A DNA stretch of 64,000 nt, taken from NCBI GenBank assembly GCA_030673645.1, contig DAOVIO010000001.1, forward strand, positions 35,507-99,506. Reading direction: 5' to 3'. Both the position numbers and the translations under genes were made by a program. A model generated the notes under the pieces. The model saw only the letters and a list, made by a program, of their open reading frames with translations. It searched no databases and was not told the DNA's origin. The number at the start of each line of letters is the position of its first letter. Positions within the stretch are counted from its first letter, which is position 1. The stretch comes from Bacteroidales bacterium. Lineage in GTDB: Bacteria; Bacteroidota; Bacteroidia; Bacteroidales; GCA-2748055. Below, in pieces: positions 56,591-63,869 of the stretch.

Positions 56591-57109
56591 TTAATAACCG
56601 GTTCGACTTAGTTCCGGCTCCGGGTACAAAATACAGAGTGAGAGTGAAGAGCGAGAGCGATGAATGACCACTCTGTATTTTTCTTCGCTCTCACTCTGAC
56701 TCTCAAGGCTCTTAAGTTCATTTGAAAAACGACCGTTCATTTTATTAAAATCAATTGTGCTGATTTCATTATCAGCATACTTATTTTCCAGATTTGCTAT
56801 CCTTGTTTTCAGTACTTCAACTTTCTTATTAATACTTTTTTGTTGTGATTTCCGGGAATGACCATTGTTAGTTAAGAAGTCATTTACTACATCTTTATAT
56901 AAATCTTTAAATACTGATTCAACTTTGATTTGGTCAATTATTTTTCCAACAGCATTCTTACTTCTTCGTCCTGCAAGTACCTCTTGAACCCGATAAAATA
57001 AATCAGGAGAAATAATTGATGAATGCATGCCATCTACAATTTGGGCAGGATGTTCACCGTATGCTTTTATTTTACCCATGAAGAGTGGATTTCGAGCAAG
57101 TAAATCCAT
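56591..57109 (-). pseudogene. Truncated large-serine-recombinase fragment (recombinase-domain tail plus coiled coil; no catalytic resolvase domain, no zinc ribbon)
   Basis: 'LARNPLFMGKI...VDGMHSSIISPDLFYRVQEVLAGRRSKN' matches the end of the Recombinase (PF07508-type) domain, and a coiled-coil-like segment follows. A stop lies five codons upstream of the ATG, and the expected N-terminal ~250 aa are absent. The C-terminal tail runs through an inverted repeat. Confidence 0.55.
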
Positions 57110-57303: not shown

Positions 57304-59652
57304 TTATTTTAATTCGTTCAGGAAAGTTATCAATTGCTGGTAATTTGGATCCTTGGGATAATATTCTATCAGTTTAGAAGCGTAATTTTCTGCATCTGCT
57401 CTGTTTTCCTGTTCAATGTTCAGGGTTGTCAGAATGTACAATATTTCGCGGTCGTAGGGATGATCCTTTAATGCTGATACAAGGAAAGCAATAGCCTTAT
57501 CTGGTTGTTGCATGGAGTTCAGGCCTATTCCATATACATAGCTATAATGAGCTTCTTCAGGTGCAAGAATGGCTGCATTTTTGAGATATTTCATGGCTTC
57601 AGTATGTTTCTCCTGTCTGATTTTCAATAATCCGAGAGCGTAATGAATTGCAGCAAGTTCAGGGTATCTTTCAAGGGCGCTTTTCAGAAGTTTTTCCCCC
57701 TCATCATCTTTCTTTAACCTTCGATACAGATCAGCCAGGTTAATATATGCAGTGACCAGTCCCGGTTCAATTCTGATGGCTTCCCGATAGGATGCTTCAG
57801 CTTTTGCAATGTCGCCCAGGTTAAGATAGAGATTCCCGAAGTTAACGTGCGTATTGGGGTGATCCGCATTGATCATCAAAGATTTTTTATACTCATCCAG
57901 ATTCCGCTTATATAACTCTCTCTTATCAGCAGGTATTTCATCCTGGGAAAAACGGGTTAGTGCATATGCCGCCATTATTCTTACAAGACGTATCGGATCA
58001 TCGAGGCTGTTTAGTATCAGCTGAATGGTACTGCTAACTCCAGAATTATGGATTACAGTGAGTGTAGAATGCCTGATAAGTGGATCTTTATCTTTTATTG
58101 TTTTTGTGAATAACTGATCAATTGATTGATCTGTATAGTTGCCAAGAAGTGAAATTGCCGTAGCTCTCACCATAGGCGCATTCTCAATATTATCGGCCAA
58201 CTTAATAAGTTTGGGTAGTGCTTCCGGATAAGCTTTCCGTCCGGCCCAAAAAACTTCACCATAGTGTTCTTTGTTGAAGATCCGGTCTCCATACCATTTA
58301 GTCATATAATCTGCTGACCATTGGTTGCTCGAATCTGTGTGACATTGATTGCAGGCATTGGGTGTGCCGAGCTTGTCGGAGAGATCGGGTCTGGGAATTC
58401 TTATGCTATGATCTCTTCTGGGGTCAAGTATCATGTAAGTTCTTTCATGCATGTGACATTCAGCACAACTTGCTCCTTCTTTAGCCGGATCATGAAAGTG
58501 GTGTTGACGTGTGCCATACTCTGTTGCTATATGACAACGGTAGCACAATGCATTTCCATCAACATATACCTTCCCGCTATGCGGTTCATGACAATCTTTA
58601 CATACCACCCCCGATTGGTACATCTTACTTTGCAAAAATGAACCATATACATACACCTCATCCTGGATTTGTCCATCGGCAAAATATGATCCCTCGTCTA
58701 ACAGTGAGGGCCAGTGAGTTTCAAGTAGAGAGCCTCCGTGGTAATACTCTTCGGTGATAACCGACCGACGTGAATGACACCTGGCACACATCTGTACTAG
58801 TTCATCTGATTCCCTGGGAACGGATCTTCGGGCTGTTGTAGAGTCGGGGTCAAATACCCAGGTGGCATTGTCGGTATCCTTTAACCGTACTACGAGGCCA
58901 AGATCAGGATAGACATCGGGACTGGCACCTTCATCCACTTTATTGGCCCAGTCTACATGTGTCGATCCGGGACCATGACAGGATTCGCAAGAGACATCAA
59001 TTTCATTCCATGTTGTATTGTAACTCCTGGTCTCAAAATCGTAATCTTTTTTTACGTTAGTAGAATGACATTCAGAGCACATATAATTCCAGTTATGTGC
59101 GGTATGGGTCCAGAAGAGGATGTCATCTGAAGGGATTCTTTCATCATTATAGAGATGAAACCATCGCTGACCTCCCTCATCTTTTGGGCGTGTATCCCAT
59201 GCAATAGAAAGACACTGGTAAGCTCCTTTTGGGAATTTAATAAGATATTGTTGTAGTGGTTTGATCCCAAAGGTGTAGGAGATCTCAAATTCTGTCATCT
59301 CTCCATCGGGACCCTCAGTATATACATAATAGCTGTTTTCTTTTTTGTAAAATCTGGAAGTTACACCAAAATGGGTGAAAGAGATATTATTGAAATCACC
59401 CAGAACAGTTGATTCATTTGCCTCATCCATGGCCATATCATGATCAGAATGCTGGAACAGGCTATGCTCCTTCTTATGACATTCGGCACAGTCCTGACGA
59501 CCCACATATTCATGCTTTAATTCAGTCTTTTGCAAACTTATGTCATTGCTGCCATCTTTATTGTTAGTATTACAACTGAATAACAATATTGTTGAGAAAA
59601 GAATTATTATTGAAGAATAGAGAGATATTTTGAGAAATTGTTTCATGATCAT
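57304..59652 (-). CDS. Octahaem c-type cytochrome (cytochrome c554-like multihaem region) fused to HEAT/TPR repeats, lipoprotein
   Basis: The lipobox is 'LLFSC'. Eight CxxCH motifs are present: CAECH, CSECH, CESCH, CARCH, CKDCH, CYRCH, CAECH, CNQCH. The C-terminal half is TPR-like ('AEASYREAIRIEPGLVTAYINLADLY', 'AIHYALGLLK...'). Confidence 0.8.
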   Translation of the reverse strand: MIMKQFLKISLYSSIIILFSTILLFSCNTNNKDGSNDISLQKTELKHEYVGRQDCAECHKKEHSLFQHSDHDMAMDEANESTVLGDFNNISFTHFGVTSRFYKKENSYYVYTEGPDGEMTEFEISYTFGIKPLQQYLIKFPKGAYQCLSIAWDTRPKDEGGQRWFHLYNDERIPSDDILFWTHTAHNWNYMCSECHSTNVKKDYDFETRSYNTTWNEIDVSCESCHGPGSTHVDWANKVDEGASPDVYPDLGLVVRLKDTDNATWVFDPDSTTARRSVPRESDELVQMCARCHSRRSVITEEYYHGGSLLETHWPSLLDEGSYFADGQIQDEVYVYGSFLQSKMYQSGVVCKDCHEPHSGKVYVDGNALCYRCHIATEYGTRQHHFHDPAKEGASCAECHMHERTYMILDPRRDHSIRIPRPDLSDKLGTPNACNQCHTDSSNQWSADYMTKWYGDRIFNKEHYGEVFWAGRKAYPEALPKLIKLADNIENAPMVRATAISLLGNYTDQSIDQLFTKTIKDKDPLIRHSTLTVIHNSGVSSTIQLILNSLDDPIRLVRIMAAYALTRFSQDEIPADKRELYKRNLDEYKKSLMINADHPNTHVNFGNLYLNLGDIAKAEASYREAIRIEPGLVTAYINLADLYRRLKKDDEGEKLLKSALERYPELAAIHYALGLLKIRQEKHTEAMKYLKNAAILAPEEAHYSYVYGIGLNSMQQPDKAIAFLVSALKDHPYDREILYILTTLNIEQENRADAENYASKLIEYYPKDPNYQQLITFLNELK

Positions 59653-59962
59653 TGAAATATTATCAGAATAAAATATCCAACCCCGGCAGGGTAAATGAGT
59701 TTATTTAATGTAAGTTTATAGTTCAGAGCTTCAGTGAACTATATAAAATAGAAAATTATTAATATTCGTAATTTTCACTCCATCCCCTATTTCCCACAGC
59801 CCAAAACCTACATTAATTATCCTGAGTACACTGGTTAAAACTGTTTTTACAATGCCAAATTTATATAAAAATCATAAAATATTCCTCTGAAAGTGGTTAA
59901 TTTAAAAAGAATCTTGATAAATTTATCGATCATAAATCTTCAACATTTTATTGATCTATTTT

Positions 59963-60403
59963 ATGGAGCGCAGAAAGTTTTTTAAAAAATTGTCCATTAT
60001 TCTGGCATCTATTGCAGGAACAGCTGTAGGAGTGAGTTTTGTCAGGATTTTTTTATTCAATGGTATGGGGAGGAGACTGAAAATAAAACTTGGTAAACCT
60101 TCCGAATACCCGGTGGATACATACACGCTGATCAAGGATGAAGATATATTCTTGTACCGGGATCATGAGGGATTGAAGGCTGTTTCATCGGTTTGTACCC
60201 ATTTAGGGTGTACTGTTCACAGAACAGCAGATGGATTTGAATGTCCCTGTCATGGATCCTGTTTTTCAGATAAGGGAGAGGTGTTGTCTGGCCCCGCACC
60301 TCAACCACTAAACTGGTACCAGGTTGAGAAAACTCCGGATGGGAAGGTACAGGTTGATATGAATTCCATCACTGATGCTGATCAAACTTTTTCACTTAGT
60401 TAA
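59963..60403 (+). CDS. Rieske [2Fe-2S] subunit of a Rieske/cytochrome b complex
   Basis: Has the Tat-like motif 'MERRKFFKKL', a TM anchor, and cluster boxes 'CTHLGC' and 'CPCHGS'. The track starts at TTG 59951. Confidence 0.85.
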   Translation: MERRKFFKKLSIILASIAGTAVGVSFVRIFLFNGMGRRLKIKLGKPSEYPVDTYTLIKDEDIFLYRDHEGLKAVSSVCTHLGCTVHRTADGFECPCHGSCFSDKGEVLSGPAPQPLNWYQVEKTPDGKVQVDMNSITDADQTFSLS

Positions 60404-60422
60404 TATCCGATTTTTAAAGTAG

Positions 60423-61793
60423 ATGGAGTTAAAAGAGGAACATACAATTATTAAAAAGGAGAAGGAGAATTACCGTAGAAGAAGAGTAGGTCGTGTAACA
60501 CAAAATTTCTTCCTCCATATTCACTCTGTCAGGGTTCATCCACACTCTTTAAAACCAACTTATACATTTGGATTGGGTGTTATTCTGGGCTTTTTGTTCC
60601 TTATCATGATCTTCTCAGGAGTGATGTTAATGCTCTATTATACTCCATCTGTTGAACATGCATATAATTCAGTAAAAGATATTGTTTACACGGTTCCTGG
60701 GGGGAGGATCCTAAGAAATATGCATCGCTTAGGGGCAAATGGGATGGTAATTGTTGTATTCCTTCATCTCCTGAGGGTGTTTTATACAGGCGCATATCTC
60801 GGAAATCGGAAATTGAATTGGATTATTGGCGTTGTTATGTTTGTGGTTGTTCTGATTATGGGTTTTAGTGGATACCTTTTACCCTGGGATCAACTCTCAT
60901 ACTGGGCAGTTATAATTGGTTCAAATATTGCCGCTTCTGCACGTGAATTGACAGATCTATTGGGTATTACATCATTTTTTGATGTTGGAGGATTTCTGAA
61001 AAGAATATTGATTGGAGGGGAGGATGTCGGACAAGCTGCATTGACCCGGTTTTTTATGTTGCATGTGATCTTTCTGCCTTTATCACTGCTGGTGCTTACT
61101 GCTGTGCATTTATGGCGTATAAGGAAAGATGGAGGGTTAAATCGTCCCGTTGAAGATGAGTCCAGTGGTAAAGCAGATGAGAAAAAATGGTATTCATGGC
61201 CACTGGTTTTTTGGATAGAACTGGCAATCTTACTTGGAGTCATAACATTATTGCTGGCTCTCTCCTTTTTTATTGAAGCACCTTTGCTGGAGCAGGCAAA
61301 TCCTGCTCATCCGGAGAACCCTGCAAAATCACCCTGGTACTTTCTGGGAATACAGGAGCTGGTATCTTATTCCGCTTTTGCCGGAGGACTGTTTGTGCCG
61401 CTTATATTCCTGATCTTCTTATTCTCAATACCATATAAAGACAGAGAAGATCGTTTTGCAGGCAAGTGGTTTTCCAGTGGCAAGGGAGTAAAGATTGCTT
61501 TTTATTCCGGATTGTTATCCATCGGAGTTGTAATTTCACAGGTATTTGTACATGTAAGATTTGGATGGCTAAGGGATTGGTTTCCAGGTATATCGCAATG
61601 GTTTGTAATGTTTATTAATCCTGCTACGCTGACGGTTTTGATATTTATCATATATGCGATCGTGATTAGAAGAAGAACCAATTCAACAAGATTGTCAGCT
61701 ATAGCATTATTCACAGTTTCAATCGTTGCATTAATAATATTTACAGTGATAGGGATCTGGTTCAGGCAAGCGAATTGGGAATTTGTTTTGTAG
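60423..61793 (+). CDS. Cytochrome b (fused b6-like N-terminal part plus subunit-IV-like C-terminal part, extra C-terminal TM helices)
   Basis: The helix-B His pair is 'NMHRLGANGMVIVVFLH' and the helix-D His pair is 'MLHVIFLPLSLLVLTAVH'. It also has 'LPWDQLSYWA' and the Qo-region 'SPWYFLGIQEL'. Confidence 0.85.
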   Translation: MELKEEHTIIKKEKENYRRRRVGRVTQNFFLHIHSVRVHPHSLKPTYTFGLGVILGFLFLIMIFSGVMLMLYYTPSVEHAYNSVKDIVYTVPGGRILRNMHRLGANGMVIVVFLHLLRVFYTGAYLGNRKLNWIIGVVMFVVVLIMGFSGYLLPWDQLSYWAVIIGSNIAASARELTDLLGITSFFDVGGFLKRILIGGEDVGQAALTRFFMLHVIFLPLSLLVLTAVHLWRIRKDGGLNRPVEDESSGKADEKKWYSWPLVFWIELAILLGVITLLLALSFFIEAPLLEQANPAHPENPAKSPWYFLGIQELVSYSAFAGGLFVPLIFLIFLFSIPYKDREDRFAGKWFSSGKGVKIAFYSGLLSIGVVISQVFVHVRFGWLRDWFPGISQWFVMFINPATLTVLIFIIYAIVIRRRTNSTRLSAIALFTVSIVALIIFTVIGIWFRQANWEFVL

Positions 61794-61826
61794 AGACGTA
61801 TACCAGTTTTTTGCAAATAAATATAT

Positions 61827-63869
61827 ATGCAATTAATGAACGAAGGGAAATATATACGGAAGTATCAAATAGCAGTGATCATAGCTTCGTCTCTGCTGAT
61901 TCTCCTATTGTTTTTCGCATGGATAATTTCCGGTCCCGGACTAGAGTGGAGGGGTGTGCAAAAACAGTATATGGAAATAATTGATAGTATGTCAGATTCT
62001 CTTCCAGAAGTTTCTCTTGCCTTACAGGAAAAAGGTATTTATCAATATGAGCTAACAGATCTGGGTCGTAAAGACAGGTGTGTCACTTGTCATATTGGTA
62101 TTGAGAATCCATATATGAAAGATTCTCCTCAGCCGTACAGATCACATCCGGGCAATTACCTGACTGATCATCCGCCTGAAAAATATGGCTGTACAATTTG
62201 TCATGGAGGTCAGGGAAGAGCACTTAAAAAGAAGGATGCATTTGGTCAGGATCCGGAAACTCATTGGAATGAACCTGTACTAACCGATCCCTATCTGGAA
62301 TCATCCTGTGGCAAATGTCATCTCTCAATTTATAATGAGAAGGTAGAACTGGCCGGAACAGATATTTTTCAAAAAGGTCAGGAGATATTTAATAGGGAAG
62401 GATGCCTGGGGTGCCATAAGGCCAGGGGAATGGGAGGGATTGTTGGCCCTGACCTTACCGAGCAGGGAGAAAAAACCAAACACGATTACAGTTTTCAGAA
62501 TATTCAGGGAGATCAAACTATTTCCAACTGGCTGAAAGAGCATTTTAAAGATCCTGAAATGGTCTCTCCCGGATCACAGATGCTAAAAATTGACCTTCCA
62601 GATGAAGATCTTGAGGCCCTGGCCACTTTTGTATTAGGACTGGCAAAGCCAGAGATATCTTTTGAATATTTTTCACTTGAAGCCTTGAGTGAATTCAAAG
62701 GAGAGAGGGATCTGCTTTCTGCTGACCTGTTATTTTCGCTCTCCTGCACCGGTTGTCATGGTAAAGATGGCACAGGTAAAAGTTATGCTGAATATAAAAC
62801 AGGTGTGCCAGCCATTATGAGCCAGGATTTCAGAAGAGTGGCTTCAGAGGATTTTATTCGATTCACCATGCAGAAGGGTAGAAGCAGGAGGCAAATGTCA
62901 TCATGGATGGAGAGTGTATCAGGAATGAAAGAGGAGGAGATAGATGCGTTGGCAAGGATGTTAAATCAAACTCAGGAGGAAGCTGATAAACAGTTTGATC
63001 ACCTTTTATATAACAAGTTGTCTGCTTCATCGGGGGAGAAGATCTTTGAGCAAAATTGTGTCACTTGTCACGGGGAAAAAGGGAGAGGAGGCATTGCACT
63101 TTCATTGAATAGGGTCGATTTACTTTCTTACGCTTCCAATACTTATTTATTTAATACATTGCTTAGAGGAAGAGGAAATACAGGTATGCCTTCATGGACG
63201 ATATTAACCAATGAGGGTATGCTTAGTGTTGTGAAATATATCAGGACCTGGTATCCATATTCACCACAAAATATATCGGTGATTGCTCAGGATTCTGATC
63301 CTGTGGCTGGTGGTCTCAAATACCATTATTTATGCTCCAGATGCCATGGTGAGTCTGGTCAGAGTCAGACCGGTCCAGCTATTATCAATAAAGATTTTAT
63401 GGATGTAGTTGCAGATGCATTTCTATATCAGACCATTGCTAATGGACGGAGTCATACAGCGATGTTTGGCTGGAGTACTGATGTATATAATGATGAGCGA
63501 TTGGAGAGAAATGATATAGGAAACATCATCTCTTTTTTGCGAGCTGAATCAAGCGAAAAACTTGGTTATATTTTTGCCGGAGCGAATCCCGGAAACAAAG
63601 AGGATGGAAGGACTCTTTTTGAGAGGCATTGTTCTGAATGTCATGGGATTGATGGTGAGGGGGTAAAGGCTCCTGCCTTGAATAACCAGGAGTTACTTAG
63701 TGCAGCTTCCAATGGTTATATTCTTGCAACACTTACAATTGGAAGGGAGGGAACGGAAATGCCCCGTTGGGGAAATGAGGAGAAAGGTCATCCGATGCTA
63801 AAAGACAGGGAGCGAGTTGATATTGTCGCTTATGTCAGGTCGTGGCAGAGGATAAGTATTAAGAATTAG
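61827..63869 (+). CDS. Membrane-anchored octahaem c-type cytochrome (N-terminal trihaem module plus five class-I-like monohaem modules)
   Basis: It has an N-terminal TM helix. Eight CxxCH motifs are present: CVTCH, CTICH, CGKCH, CLGCH, CTGCH, CVTCH, CSRCH, CSECH. The last five sit in 'C..CHG..G.G' contexts with downstream Met residues. Confidence 0.8.
   Translation: MQLMNEGKYIRKYQIAVIIASSLLILLLFFAWIISGPGLEWRGVQKQYMEIIDSMSDSLPEVSLALQEKGIYQYELTDLGRKDRCVTCHIGIENPYMKDSPQPYRSHPGNYLTDHPPEKYGCTICHGGQGRALKKKDAFGQDPETHWNEPVLTDPYLESSCGKCHLSIYNEKVELAGTDIFQKGQEIFNREGCLGCHKARGMGGIVGPDLTEQGEKTKHDYSFQNIQGDQTISNWLKEHFKDPEMVSPGSQMLKIDLPDEDLEALATFVLGLAKPEISFEYFSLEALSEFKGERDLLSADLLFSLSCTGCHGKDGTGKSYAEYKTGVPAIMSQDFRRVASEDFIRFTMQKGRSRRQMSSWMESVSGMKEEEIDALARMLNQTQEEADKQFDHLLYNKLSASSGEKIFEQNCVTCHGEKGRGGIALSLNRVDLLSYASNTYLFNTLLRGRGNTGMPSWTILTNEGMLSVVKYIRTWYPYSPQNISVIAQDSDPVAGGLKYHYLCSRCHGESGQSQTGPAIINKDFMDVVADAFLYQTIANGRSHTAMFGWSTDVYNDERLERNDIGNIISFLRAESSEKLGYIFAGANPGNKEDGRTLFERHCSECHGIDGEGVKAPALNNQELLSAASNGYILATLTIGREGTEMPRWGNEEKGHPMLKDRERVDIVAYVRSWQRISIKN

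Follow-up and report, generated by a model that had tools for sequence, protein, structure and literature searches.

The locus described here lies in a 64-kb stretch of Bacteroidales DNA (contig DAOVIO010000001.1) and consists of four genes, encoding a Rieske protein, a cytochrome b and two octahaem c-type cytochromes. We refer to the whole stretch as the window; coordinates and strands of its open reading frames (ORFs) were read from its sequence. In the ORF list, the unit appears as one minus-strand gene followed by three plus-strand genes (Table 1). The plus-strand genes are tightly spaced, with 19 nt between the Rieske and cytochrome b genes and 33 nt between the latter and the gene for a 680-aa octahaem cytochrome, and the divergent gene encodes a 782-aa octahaem lipoprotein with HEAT and TPR repeats. 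Each of the two c-type cytochromes contains exactly eight CxxCH motifs, which amounts to 16 c-type haem motifs per unit and is far above the chance expectation, estimated at ~0.001 per protein. Pfam searches at E <= 0.01 gave no match to the cytochrome c1 or cytochrome f families in any of the four proteins. An earlier note on this DNA had reported the Rieske boxes, the cytochrome b, the eight motifs in each cytochrome, the short gaps and the divergent lipoprotein gene, and all of these were found as it described them.

To place the unit in a wider context, we scanned one genome per GTDB species with the 680-aa octahaem as query, and analyzed neighborhoods in the best 80 of 500 stretches. Approximately 500 species-level stretches encoded a relative of this protein. 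The best 80 loci came mostly from Bacteroidales metagenome-assembled genomes (MAGs), but MAGs of Aminicenantes, KSB1, Calditrichaceae and 'Cytophagia' were also represented; by isolate name, the sources were cold-seep, hydrothermal, sulfidic-spring, lake and soil/sediment surveys. Cytochrome b was encoded directly 5' of the octahaem cytochrome in 68 of 69 informative loci, and a divergent lipoprotein gene was found <= 1.2 kb from the gene for the Rieske protein in 55 of 61 loci; these include two from Aminicenantes. Median identity to the window proteins was 66% for cytochrome b, 63% for the lipoprotein, 52% for the octahaem cytochrome and 47% for the Rieske protein. The remaining neighbors varied among the 80 loci and were of a housekeeping nature (peptidase M23, dxr, rseP, tatA, ilvDBNC) or were sulfatases. 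Because the flanks hold housekeeping genes only, the four genes therefore form a self-contained conserved unit. No terminal oxidase or reductase gene was detected within 10 kb in any Bacteroidales locus, and a terminal reductase encoded in the flanks was rejected, as the genes downstream in the 80 loci and in MAG GCA_023135955.1 showed no functional link.

Database searches gave a similar picture. The 680-aa protein has hundreds of full-length homologues at 53–61% identity, the named ones all from Bacteroidales or other Bacteroidota MAGs, and one protein, from the 'Bacteroidales bacterium' MAG GCA_023135955.1, is identical to it. Homologues of cytochrome b were 65–76% identical, and the haem domain of the lipoprotein was 67–81% identical to the full-length homologues listed. 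The rarity that the earlier note had implied is thus not borne out, with relatives in ~500 species-level genomes and a conserved four-gene order that recurs in Bacteroidales, Aminicenantes and relatives. That note had also allowed for the gene set being common and already described; common it is, but our literature searches found no description of the four-gene set in Bacteroidota or Aminicenantes. The main texts of two evolutionary surveys of cytochrome b contain no mention of Bacteroidetes (PMC4122944, PMC5600118).

Table 1. Features of the four-gene unit, in window coordinates
Feature	Position	Strand	Basis
Octahaem lipoprotein 'MHC-TPR', 782 aa	57304-59652	-	8 CxxCH, lipobox Cys27, c554/c7 + HEAT + TPR (Pfam)
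Haem domain of lipoprotein, residues 28-470, 8 haems + beta-rich insert	58243-59571	-	OcwA/OmhA profile matches
HEAT/TPR region of lipoprotein, residues 471-782	57307-58242	-	Pfam, AlphaFold2 helical model
Divergent intergenic region, 311 nt up to ATG 59964	59653-59963	.	Between two transcription units
Rieske [2Fe-2S] subunit, 146 aa from ATG	59964-60403	+	Pfam Rieske, E 1e-13
Fused cytochrome b, 456 aa, SPWY Qo motif	60423-61793	+	Pfam Cytochrome_B, E 7e-40
Membrane-anchored octahaem cytochrome c, 680 aa	61827-63869	+	8 CxxCH, transmembrane helix, Pfam class-I domains

As listed, the ORF for the Rieske subunit (59951-60403) encodes 150 aa from a TTG codon. We consider the ATG at 59964 the likely start, since the resulting length of 146 aa is the commonest among homologues, and the protein would then begin with MERRKFFKK. 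Its N-terminus contains a twin-arginine signal/anchor (RRKFF). Both cluster boxes, CTHLGC and CPCHGS, are present together with the disulfide cysteines, and box I does not vary among the 56 homologues. The second box continues as CPCHGS-C-F, and the signature after CxCH is S-F in the window protein, and S-Y (40) or S-F (16) in the 56 homologues. The best PDB matches were Kuenenia Kuste4569 (9rk4, 82 bits), 8hn2 and Kustd1480 (9rk3), all ahead of PetC of the b6f complex. Previous studies associated the S-F and S-Y signatures with mid+/high potential, ~260 mV or more (PMC4122944), and Kustd1480, an S-F Rieske protein, has a measured potential of +335 mV (PMC12954380). By this signature rule, the cluster of the window protein is predicted to be of mid-to-high potential.

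Cytochrome b is encoded by one ORF that combines a b6-like N-terminal half, a subunit-IV-like part and a C-terminal extension; a split cytochrome b6/subunit IV arrangement is not present, as the single ORF spans both. The protein has ~9 hydrophobic segments and no cysteine, and is therefore unable to bind haem cn. The segment equivalent to CxGG reads F-G-L-G, with Gly50 and Gly52 invariant. The ligands of haems bL and bH (His101/His115 and His214/His229) are invariant in all 56 family members, and helix D shows the b6-like His-x14-His spacing, counted by eye in the sequence. The Qo motif, at residues 303-306, is SPWY in 54 of the 56 members and APWY in the other two, and stands in the invariant context NPAK-SPWY-FLG. 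Close to the N-terminus, His32 and His34 (HIHSVRVHPH) are invariant or nearly so among the 56 members. AlphaFold3 models of the Kuenenia complexes led to the proposal that the N-terminal His43 of Kuste4571, one per monomer, binds an extra haem b (PMC12954380); by analogy, His32/His34 could hold an extra haem b in the window protein.

Among NCBIfam models, ExtP (NF040969) scored highest against the N-terminal half of the fused cytochrome b, with 226.1 bits against a cut-off of 290, and residues 265-371 matched ExtQ (NF040970) with 51.3 bits against a cut-off of 150. Both scores are under the cut-off, and the protein is not an ExtP/ExtQ equivalog by these models. We also carried out an exhaustive HMMER search and considered, among the best 150 of the 50%-identity representatives, those with a readable Qo motif. 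Nearly all of these motifs were APWY or APWF, in long forms without CxGG, and PEWY was found far down. Few of the nearest non-Bacteroidota cytochromes b carried a name, and those that did were Acidobacteriota (Ca. Solibacter, Acidoferrales). This neighborhood, rather than a labelled reference tree, places the protein by sequence with the APWY-type lineage and apparently not with the PEWY clade of Chlorobi. Vertical inheritance of a Chlorobi-type complex was rejected: the motif is SPWY here and APWY in the nearest representatives, and PEWY has been reported for Chlorobi (PMC4122944). Members of the APWY clade include delta-Proteobacteria, Planctomycetes, Nitrospirales, Chloroflexi and others (PMC4122944). 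In a rough neighbor-joining tree of the family, which is indicative only, Bacteroidota were paraphyletic and Aminicenantes occurred at two places, a pattern that suggests some lateral transfer. Together, the best Rieske match (Kuste4569), the best cytochrome b model (ExtP, below its cut-off) and the APWY-type neighbors agree with the affinity to anammox and deltaproteobacterial complexes that had been noticed before.

The 680-aa octahaem cytochrome starts with a transmembrane helix (residues 15-33), which is followed by a c7-like trihaem part and five class-I monohaem domains. Its CxxCH motifs are at residues 85, 122, 161, 193, 307, 411, 503 and 602 and hold all 16 cysteines of the protein. 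Pfam detected Cytochrom_C or Cytochrome_CBB3 in 4–5 stretches in addition to a c7-like stretch, and the class-I domains match CcoP and actinobacterial QcrC (PDB, NCBIfam). Three histidines outside the motifs, His107, His115 and His146, are invariant among homologues, and three bis-His haems are probable in the trihaem part. Each class-I domain contains one or two invariant methionines (Met245/252/357/454/546/645) in a context of the G-x-x-M-P/F-x-W type, and predicted His/Met ligation in the five domains fits this pattern. The AlphaFold2 model is reliable for the class-I domains, whereas its pLDDT is below 50 over the multihaem region. A NapC/NirT-type quinol dehydrogenase was tried as an identity for the octahaem and dropped, as only trivial matches were obtained. 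Because of its position as the third gene, its N-terminal anchor, the lack of c1 and f and the analogy with Kuenenia, where an anchored multihaem cytochrome takes the place of cytochrome f, the octahaem is presumed to be the c1/f-equivalent subunit. The role that had been assigned earlier to this trihaem-plus-five-monohaem protein is therefore a fitting one.

In the 782-aa lipoprotein, the CxxCH motifs are located at residues 55, 192, 222, 289, 351, 370, 396 and 434. Cys27, in the lipobox-like sequence LFSC, and Cys147 are invariant in 21 homologues, and the residues after the lipobox cysteine contain no clear surface-export signal. Pfam matches were Cytochrome_C554 (E 2e-8) and a c7-like family, HEAT_2 at 513-570 and TPR families at 580-775. 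A beta-rich insert is located between haems 1 and 2 (~residues 80-170), with strands at 90-166 in the AlphaFold2 model (pLDDT ~70-90). Within this insert lies Cys147 (59212-59214, minus strand), which is outside any CxxCH, has the context YQCL and is conserved in 21 of 21 homologues; it may act as an axial ligand of a haem, as a redox-active thiol or in cross-linking. The repeat region was modelled as helical (pLDDT 70-93), and the HEAT/TPR tail is presumed to be a protein-docking module.

When the profile of the haem domain was compared with PDB, the best match was OcwA (6i5b, E 4.4e-11, in four segments), followed by OmhA (6qvm, E 7.7e-6) and c554 (E 0.27). The alignment with OcwA covers haem 1, haems 2-3 and haems 6-8, and the invariant His384/His385 of the lipoprotein align with a His-His pair of OcwA. 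If an offset for the signal peptide is assumed, the OcwA pair is H380/H381, which is distal to a penta-coordinate haem (PMC9250108). Both OcwA and OmhA serve as terminal reductases of iron, and members of their homologous group, OcwA included, also reduce nitrite or NO in vitro (PMC9250108). By profile comparison, the haem domain appears to be a distant homologue within the OcwA/OmhA/c554 branch of the NrfA-HAO superfamily. This relationship is one of sequence alone, since the haem region was modelled with pLDDT below 50 and Foldseek with the AlphaFold2 model retrieved TPR superhelices only. The earlier suggestion of extracellular electron transfer or an unusual acceptor thereby gains some support on the side of the lipoprotein, but no acceptor gene was found in the flanks.

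The intergenic region between the divergent genes is 311 nt long in the window, compared with typically ~100–150 nt in related loci, where the gap between the tblastn matches of the two genes has a median of ~160 nt. It contains a 16-bp near-perfect palindrome, TTGATAAATTTATCGA, at 59914-59929, ~50 nt 5' of the Rieske ATG. We considered an FNR/CRP-like operator at this site and dropped it, as the palindrome is not kept in 47 other intergenic regions; no conserved operator was found across the equivalent regions of these 47 related loci. At least 20 related loci contain the sequence TTCAAATGTATATAAA ~70–120 nt ahead of the start of the Rieske gene. Its opposite strand contains TACATTTG, which we take to be the Bacteroidetes -7 element TAnnTTTG of the lipoprotein gene. 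Hits in a scan for sigma-70 promoters and terminators were no more frequent than in shuffled sequence.

Most of the window (1-56342) is occupied by a very large, sulfatase-rich polysaccharide-utilisation region with 11 sulfatase genes, GH130, GH10 and GH42-like enzymes, an SSF transporter and an AraC regulator. It also encodes several giant fn3/PA14 proteins sorted by the type IX secretion system (T9SS) and two SusC/SusD pairs, each with fasciclin-domain proteins. This gene content confirms a heterotrophic lifestyle of the host. The SusC/SusD pairs and T9SS sorting domains support a Bacteroidota origin, and they agree, as does the identity to a Bacteroidales MAG protein, with the Bacteroidota-type genome recognized in the earlier note. 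Between this region and the respiratory genes, a 172-aa ORF (56591-57109, minus strand) encodes a coiled coil and matches, weakly, the C-terminal portion of the 'Recombinase' domain found in serine recombinases; it is probably a truncated recombinase remnant. Past the point where the window ends, MAG GCA_023135955.1 contains small ORFs, HipBA, VanZ and an ECF sigma factor. Scans of the window for tRNAs and Rfam families found nothing.

Several of the related loci had neighbors of their own. Genes for ACR3-type arsenite efflux adjoin the 3' end of the lipoprotein gene in ~12 loci (L014, L015, L021, L023, L025, L030, L033, L041, L055, L063, L064, L066), about half of which also have ArsM-like methyltransferases. 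A link to arsenic was set aside, as these loci represent one Bacteroidales sub-lineage sharing the same downstream block, and the adjacency is probably inherited synteny. In a Calditrichaceae MAG (L059:16-13695), an apparent operon starts with a GltD-like NAD(P)/2x[4Fe-4S] oxidoreductase gene overlapping the Rieske start, and continues with Rieske, cytochrome b and octahaem homologues, a 906-aa NapA/Fdh-like molybdoenzyme and alternating NapG-like and NapH-like proteins. In this operon, traits of the anammox-type complexes occur together with traits of the nap locus of Caldithrix. In the MAG 'bin522' (CP070707.1; L058:4947-12019), a FadL/TodX-like outer-membrane protein and a divergent 5-haem c554-like cytochrome are encoded upstream of an octahaem homologue, and neither a Rieske nor an octahaem-TPR gene was detected at that locus.

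Rieske/cytochrome b complexes with multihaem partners are already known from anammox bacteria, Geobacter, Ignavibacterium and Caldithrix (PMC12954380, PMC5877670, PMC4122944, PMC5317091). In the Kuenenia complexes, a hexa- or octahaem c subunit replaces cytochrome f, and one complex adds an HAO-like octahaem enzyme (PMC12954380). Kuste4569-4574 and Kustd1480-1485 share with the window unit the Rieske/cytochrome b core, the b6-like haem half and an anchored multihaem cytochrome in place of f; the former also resembles it in having an additional octahaem enzyme and in its Rieske match of 82 bits, and Kustd1480 has the S-F signature in common with the window Rieske protein. However, b6 and subunit IV are split in Kuenenia, whereas the window cytochrome b is fused and lacks cysteine and haem cn. 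The NAD(P)-binding FeS oxidoreductase subunit of the Kuenenia complexes has no counterpart in the window module and, among the neighbor families inspected in related loci, was seen only in the Calditrichaceae locus L059. The extra octahaem protein of Kuenenia is HAO-like; that of the window resembles OcwA and carries a lipid anchor and a TPR tail. The c subunit of the window unit has five class-I domains, and its host, a heterotrophic Bacteroidales, has no anammoxosome.

The extOPQ genes of Geobacter sulfurreducens, part of extHIJKLMNOPQS (PMC5877670), are similar in that ExtP and ExtQ are the best models for the window cytochrome b, the Rieske protein is small and multihaem cytochromes stand in for c1; in both systems the function is predicted. 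They differ in that cytochrome b is split in Geobacter and fused in the window, the window scores are below the ExtP/ExtQ cut-offs, and the partners in Geobacter are 12-, 10-, 5- and 4-haem cytochromes, a porin and a rhodanese, whereas the window unit has no porin. Compared with the APWY/GPWY clades (PMC4122944), which correspond approximately to subfamily G/G'/L of Dibrova et al. 2017 (PMC5600118), the window shares the S-F/S-Y Rieske partners and a proline at position 2 of the motif, but SPWY is outside the six major patterns of 2014, and the window protein is a long fused form without CxGG. One member of the GPWY clade from the FCB group, Ignavibacterium album, is reported to have a cytochrome b fused to a c7-type trihaem domain (PMC4122944), and this fusion echoes the c7-like trihaem start of the 680-aa octahaem.

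The lipoprotein resembles OcwA of Thermincola potens (6I5B) and OmhA of Carboxydothermus ferrireducens (6QVM) in profile homology and in the aligned His-His pair (PMC9250108, PMC6703420). These proteins are located at the cell surface and have 9 (OcwA) or 11 (OmhA) haems versus 8 in the lipoprotein, which adds the beta-rich insert with its invariant cysteine, the HEAT/TPR tail and the lipid anchor. In addition, the host of the lipoprotein is diderm, and its gene is linked to a Rieske/cytochrome b operon. Another case from the FCB group is Caldithrix abyssi, in which a Rieske/cytochrome b pair (Cabys_2558/2557) lacks c1, adjoins an octahaem (epsilon-Hao), and has been proposed as the electron donor to periplasmic multihaem proteins (PMC5317091). 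Calditrichaceae MAGs (L059, L062) carry homologues of the window octahaem. The partners in Caldithrix are Nap and epsilon-Hao, whereas the window has no nap gene and its octahaems are of other types. The present family differs from these systems in its set of subunits: the cytochrome b is fused, lacks cysteine and has the SPWY motif, the octahaem cytochrome is of the 3+5 type, the octahaem-TPR lipoprotein is OcwA-like, and no NAD(P) oxidoreductase is included.

Genes for alternative complex III (ACIII; actABCDEF) were not found within the 64-kb window. ACIII, as in Flavobacterium johnsoniae and Rhodothermus marinus, is a quinol:cytochrome c oxidoreductase with a pentahaem ActA and monohaem c subunits. 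Its ActB/ActC architecture belongs to the molybdopterin family, and it contains neither a Rieske protein nor cytochrome b. ACIII and the window unit have the same physiological niche and both use multihaem c subunits, yet they are evolutionarily unrelated.

Starting from the observed motifs, cofactor sites, family placement and four-gene synteny, we infer a direction of electron flow, a physical partnership with the lipoprotein and a type of acceptor. Our slight preference is for a respiratory menaquinol:multihaem oxidoreductase, with the OcwA-like lipoprotein as its likely terminal module. Quinol, presumably menaquinol as generally in Bacteroidota, would be oxidized at the Qo site of the fused cytochrome b. 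One electron would pass via haems bL and bH for Q-cycling, with no haem cn involved, and the second would go to the Tat-exported Rieske cluster with its predicted mid-to-high potential. The Rieske protein may then reduce the anchored octahaem in place of c1/f, through three predicted bis-His haems near the membrane and subsequently the five putative His/Met domains. The octahaem would pass electrons on in the periplasm, and its likeliest dedicated partner is the co-conserved divergent lipoprotein, which may dock via its HEAT/TPR tail; this partnership is suggested because the divergent adjacency is conserved and the lipoprotein itself is strongly conserved. The lipoprotein could reduce a high-potential oxidant, such as nitrite, NO, hydroxylamine-type N-oxides or Fe(III)/Mn(IV) species, with energy conserved by the Q cycle. 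Because of the Calditrichaceae operon and the nap-linked pair of Caldithrix (PMC5317091), N-oxides are plausible acceptors for this lineage of complexes.

A number of observations weigh against this proposal. No neighboring gene points to an acceptor in the window, its continuation or the 80 related loci. With the haem regions unreliable in the AlphaFold2 models, haem ligation and the penta-coordinate site come from alignment alone, and the OcwA match is distant (46 bits) and in pieces. A high-potential Rieske cluster is energetically odd in combination with low-potential menaquinol, and in related clades such energetics led to proposals of reverse or bifurcating operation (PMC4122944, PMC12954380). 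It should also be noted that a periplasmic lipoprotein would need an outer-membrane conduit to reduce metal oxides, and none is encoded nearby. Finally, the lipoprotein gene is not adjacent in 6 of 61 loci, and the Calditrichaceae trio sits instead with a NapA/Fdh-like molybdoenzyme and NapG/H-like proteins, which shows that the Rieske/cytochrome b/octahaem core can serve other partners.

These last two observations also favor a possible, though in our view clearly less probable, alternative, in which the trio acts as the organism's general complex III, a quinol:cytochrome c oxidoreductase whose five class-I domains pass electrons to ordinary terminal enzymes with genes in other parts of the genome (cbb3/caa3 oxidase, NosZ, Nap or cytochrome c peroxidase), and the lipoprotein is one of several acceptors or an accessory/assembly factor. 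The class-I domains resemble CcoP and actinobacterial QcrC, which link bc complexes to oxidases, and the Calditrichaceae operon matches the nap report for Caldithrix abyssi (PMC5317091). However, in 55 of 61 loci, two from Aminicenantes among them, the divergent lipoprotein gene has stayed in place while all other neighbors change; conservation of the lipoprotein is close to that of cytochrome b and exceeds that of the octahaem and Rieske proteins; and the flanks of the Bacteroidales loci contain no oxidase or reductase gene within the 10 kb inspected. Two further schemes were considered. The complex might run in reverse, with the lipoprotein oxidizing a donor in the periplasm or outside the cell, such as Fe(II) or reduced N or S species, so that electrons enter the high-potential chain and proton-motive force drives them by a reversed Q cycle into menaquinone. 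Kao and Hunte proposed that Qo motifs with proline at position 2 (APWY) mark reverse complexes, as for the p-cresol system of Geobacter metallireducens (PMC4122944), and the predicted high potential of the Rieske cluster would suit such a function. We regard this as improbable: that idea is itself still a proposal, the window belongs to a polysaccharide-degrading heterotroph (11 sulfatases, GHs, SusC/D) with no obvious need for it, and the module is not linked to genes for carbon fixation or donor oxidation. Still less likely is an anammox-like bifurcation, in which the menaquinol-to-Rieske drop would be spent not on a Q cycle but on pushing the second electron to a low-potential acceptor at the cytoplasmic face. 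The closest solved relatives of the Rieske protein come from the Kuenenia complexes for which this was proposed, His32/His34 recall the modelled extra-haem ligand His43 of Kuste4571 (PMC12954380), and in L059 the Rieske gene follows one for a GltD-like NAD(P)/FeS oxidoreductase. Yet no NAD(P) oxidoreductase gene is part of the module or adjoins it in the window or its continuation, nor was one seen among the recurrent neighbor families inspected in the Bacteroidales loci, whose flanking ORFs are partly annotated; haem cn is lacking; and even in Kuenenia the extra haem was deduced from AlphaFold models.

Returning to the menaquinol:multihaem oxidoreductase, a more far-reaching version of it is tentative and, we think, rather doubtful: a respiratory enzyme widespread among Bacteroidales, Aminicenantes and relatives of anoxic sediments, in which a high-potential complex of a menaquinone organism is hard-wired via the 3+5 octahaem to the OcwA-like lipoprotein as terminal reductase, forming a quinol:N-oxide/metal supercomplex. 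If this were true, polysaccharide degraders that are supposedly fermentative would gain an unrecognised anaerobic respiration, with a menaquinol-to-Rieske drop of ~350–400 mV, like that debated for the anammox complexes.

Models usually treat the Bacteroidales of sediments, cold seeps, sulfidic springs and sludge as fermenting organisms, or else let them respire with cytochrome bd and fumarate reductase, and cultured aerobic Bacteroidota use ACIII. The ~500 carriers detected here would mean that many such Bacteroidales have a proton-pumping quinol oxidase aimed at a high-potential periplasmic acceptor. Naming this acceptor, be it nitrite/NO, metal oxides or oxygen via an oxidase, would change models of carbon turnover in anoxic sediments. 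None of the xPWY-type complexes had been characterized by 2014 (PMC4122944), and the understanding of the anammox complexes is still partial (PMC12954380). The family therefore offers a tractable non-anammox system for the role of xPWY Qo motifs and high-potential Rieske proteins in menaquinone organisms. The unit is common, conserved and, by our literature searches, unstudied, and it provides a concrete and widespread target for work on the function of such complexes.

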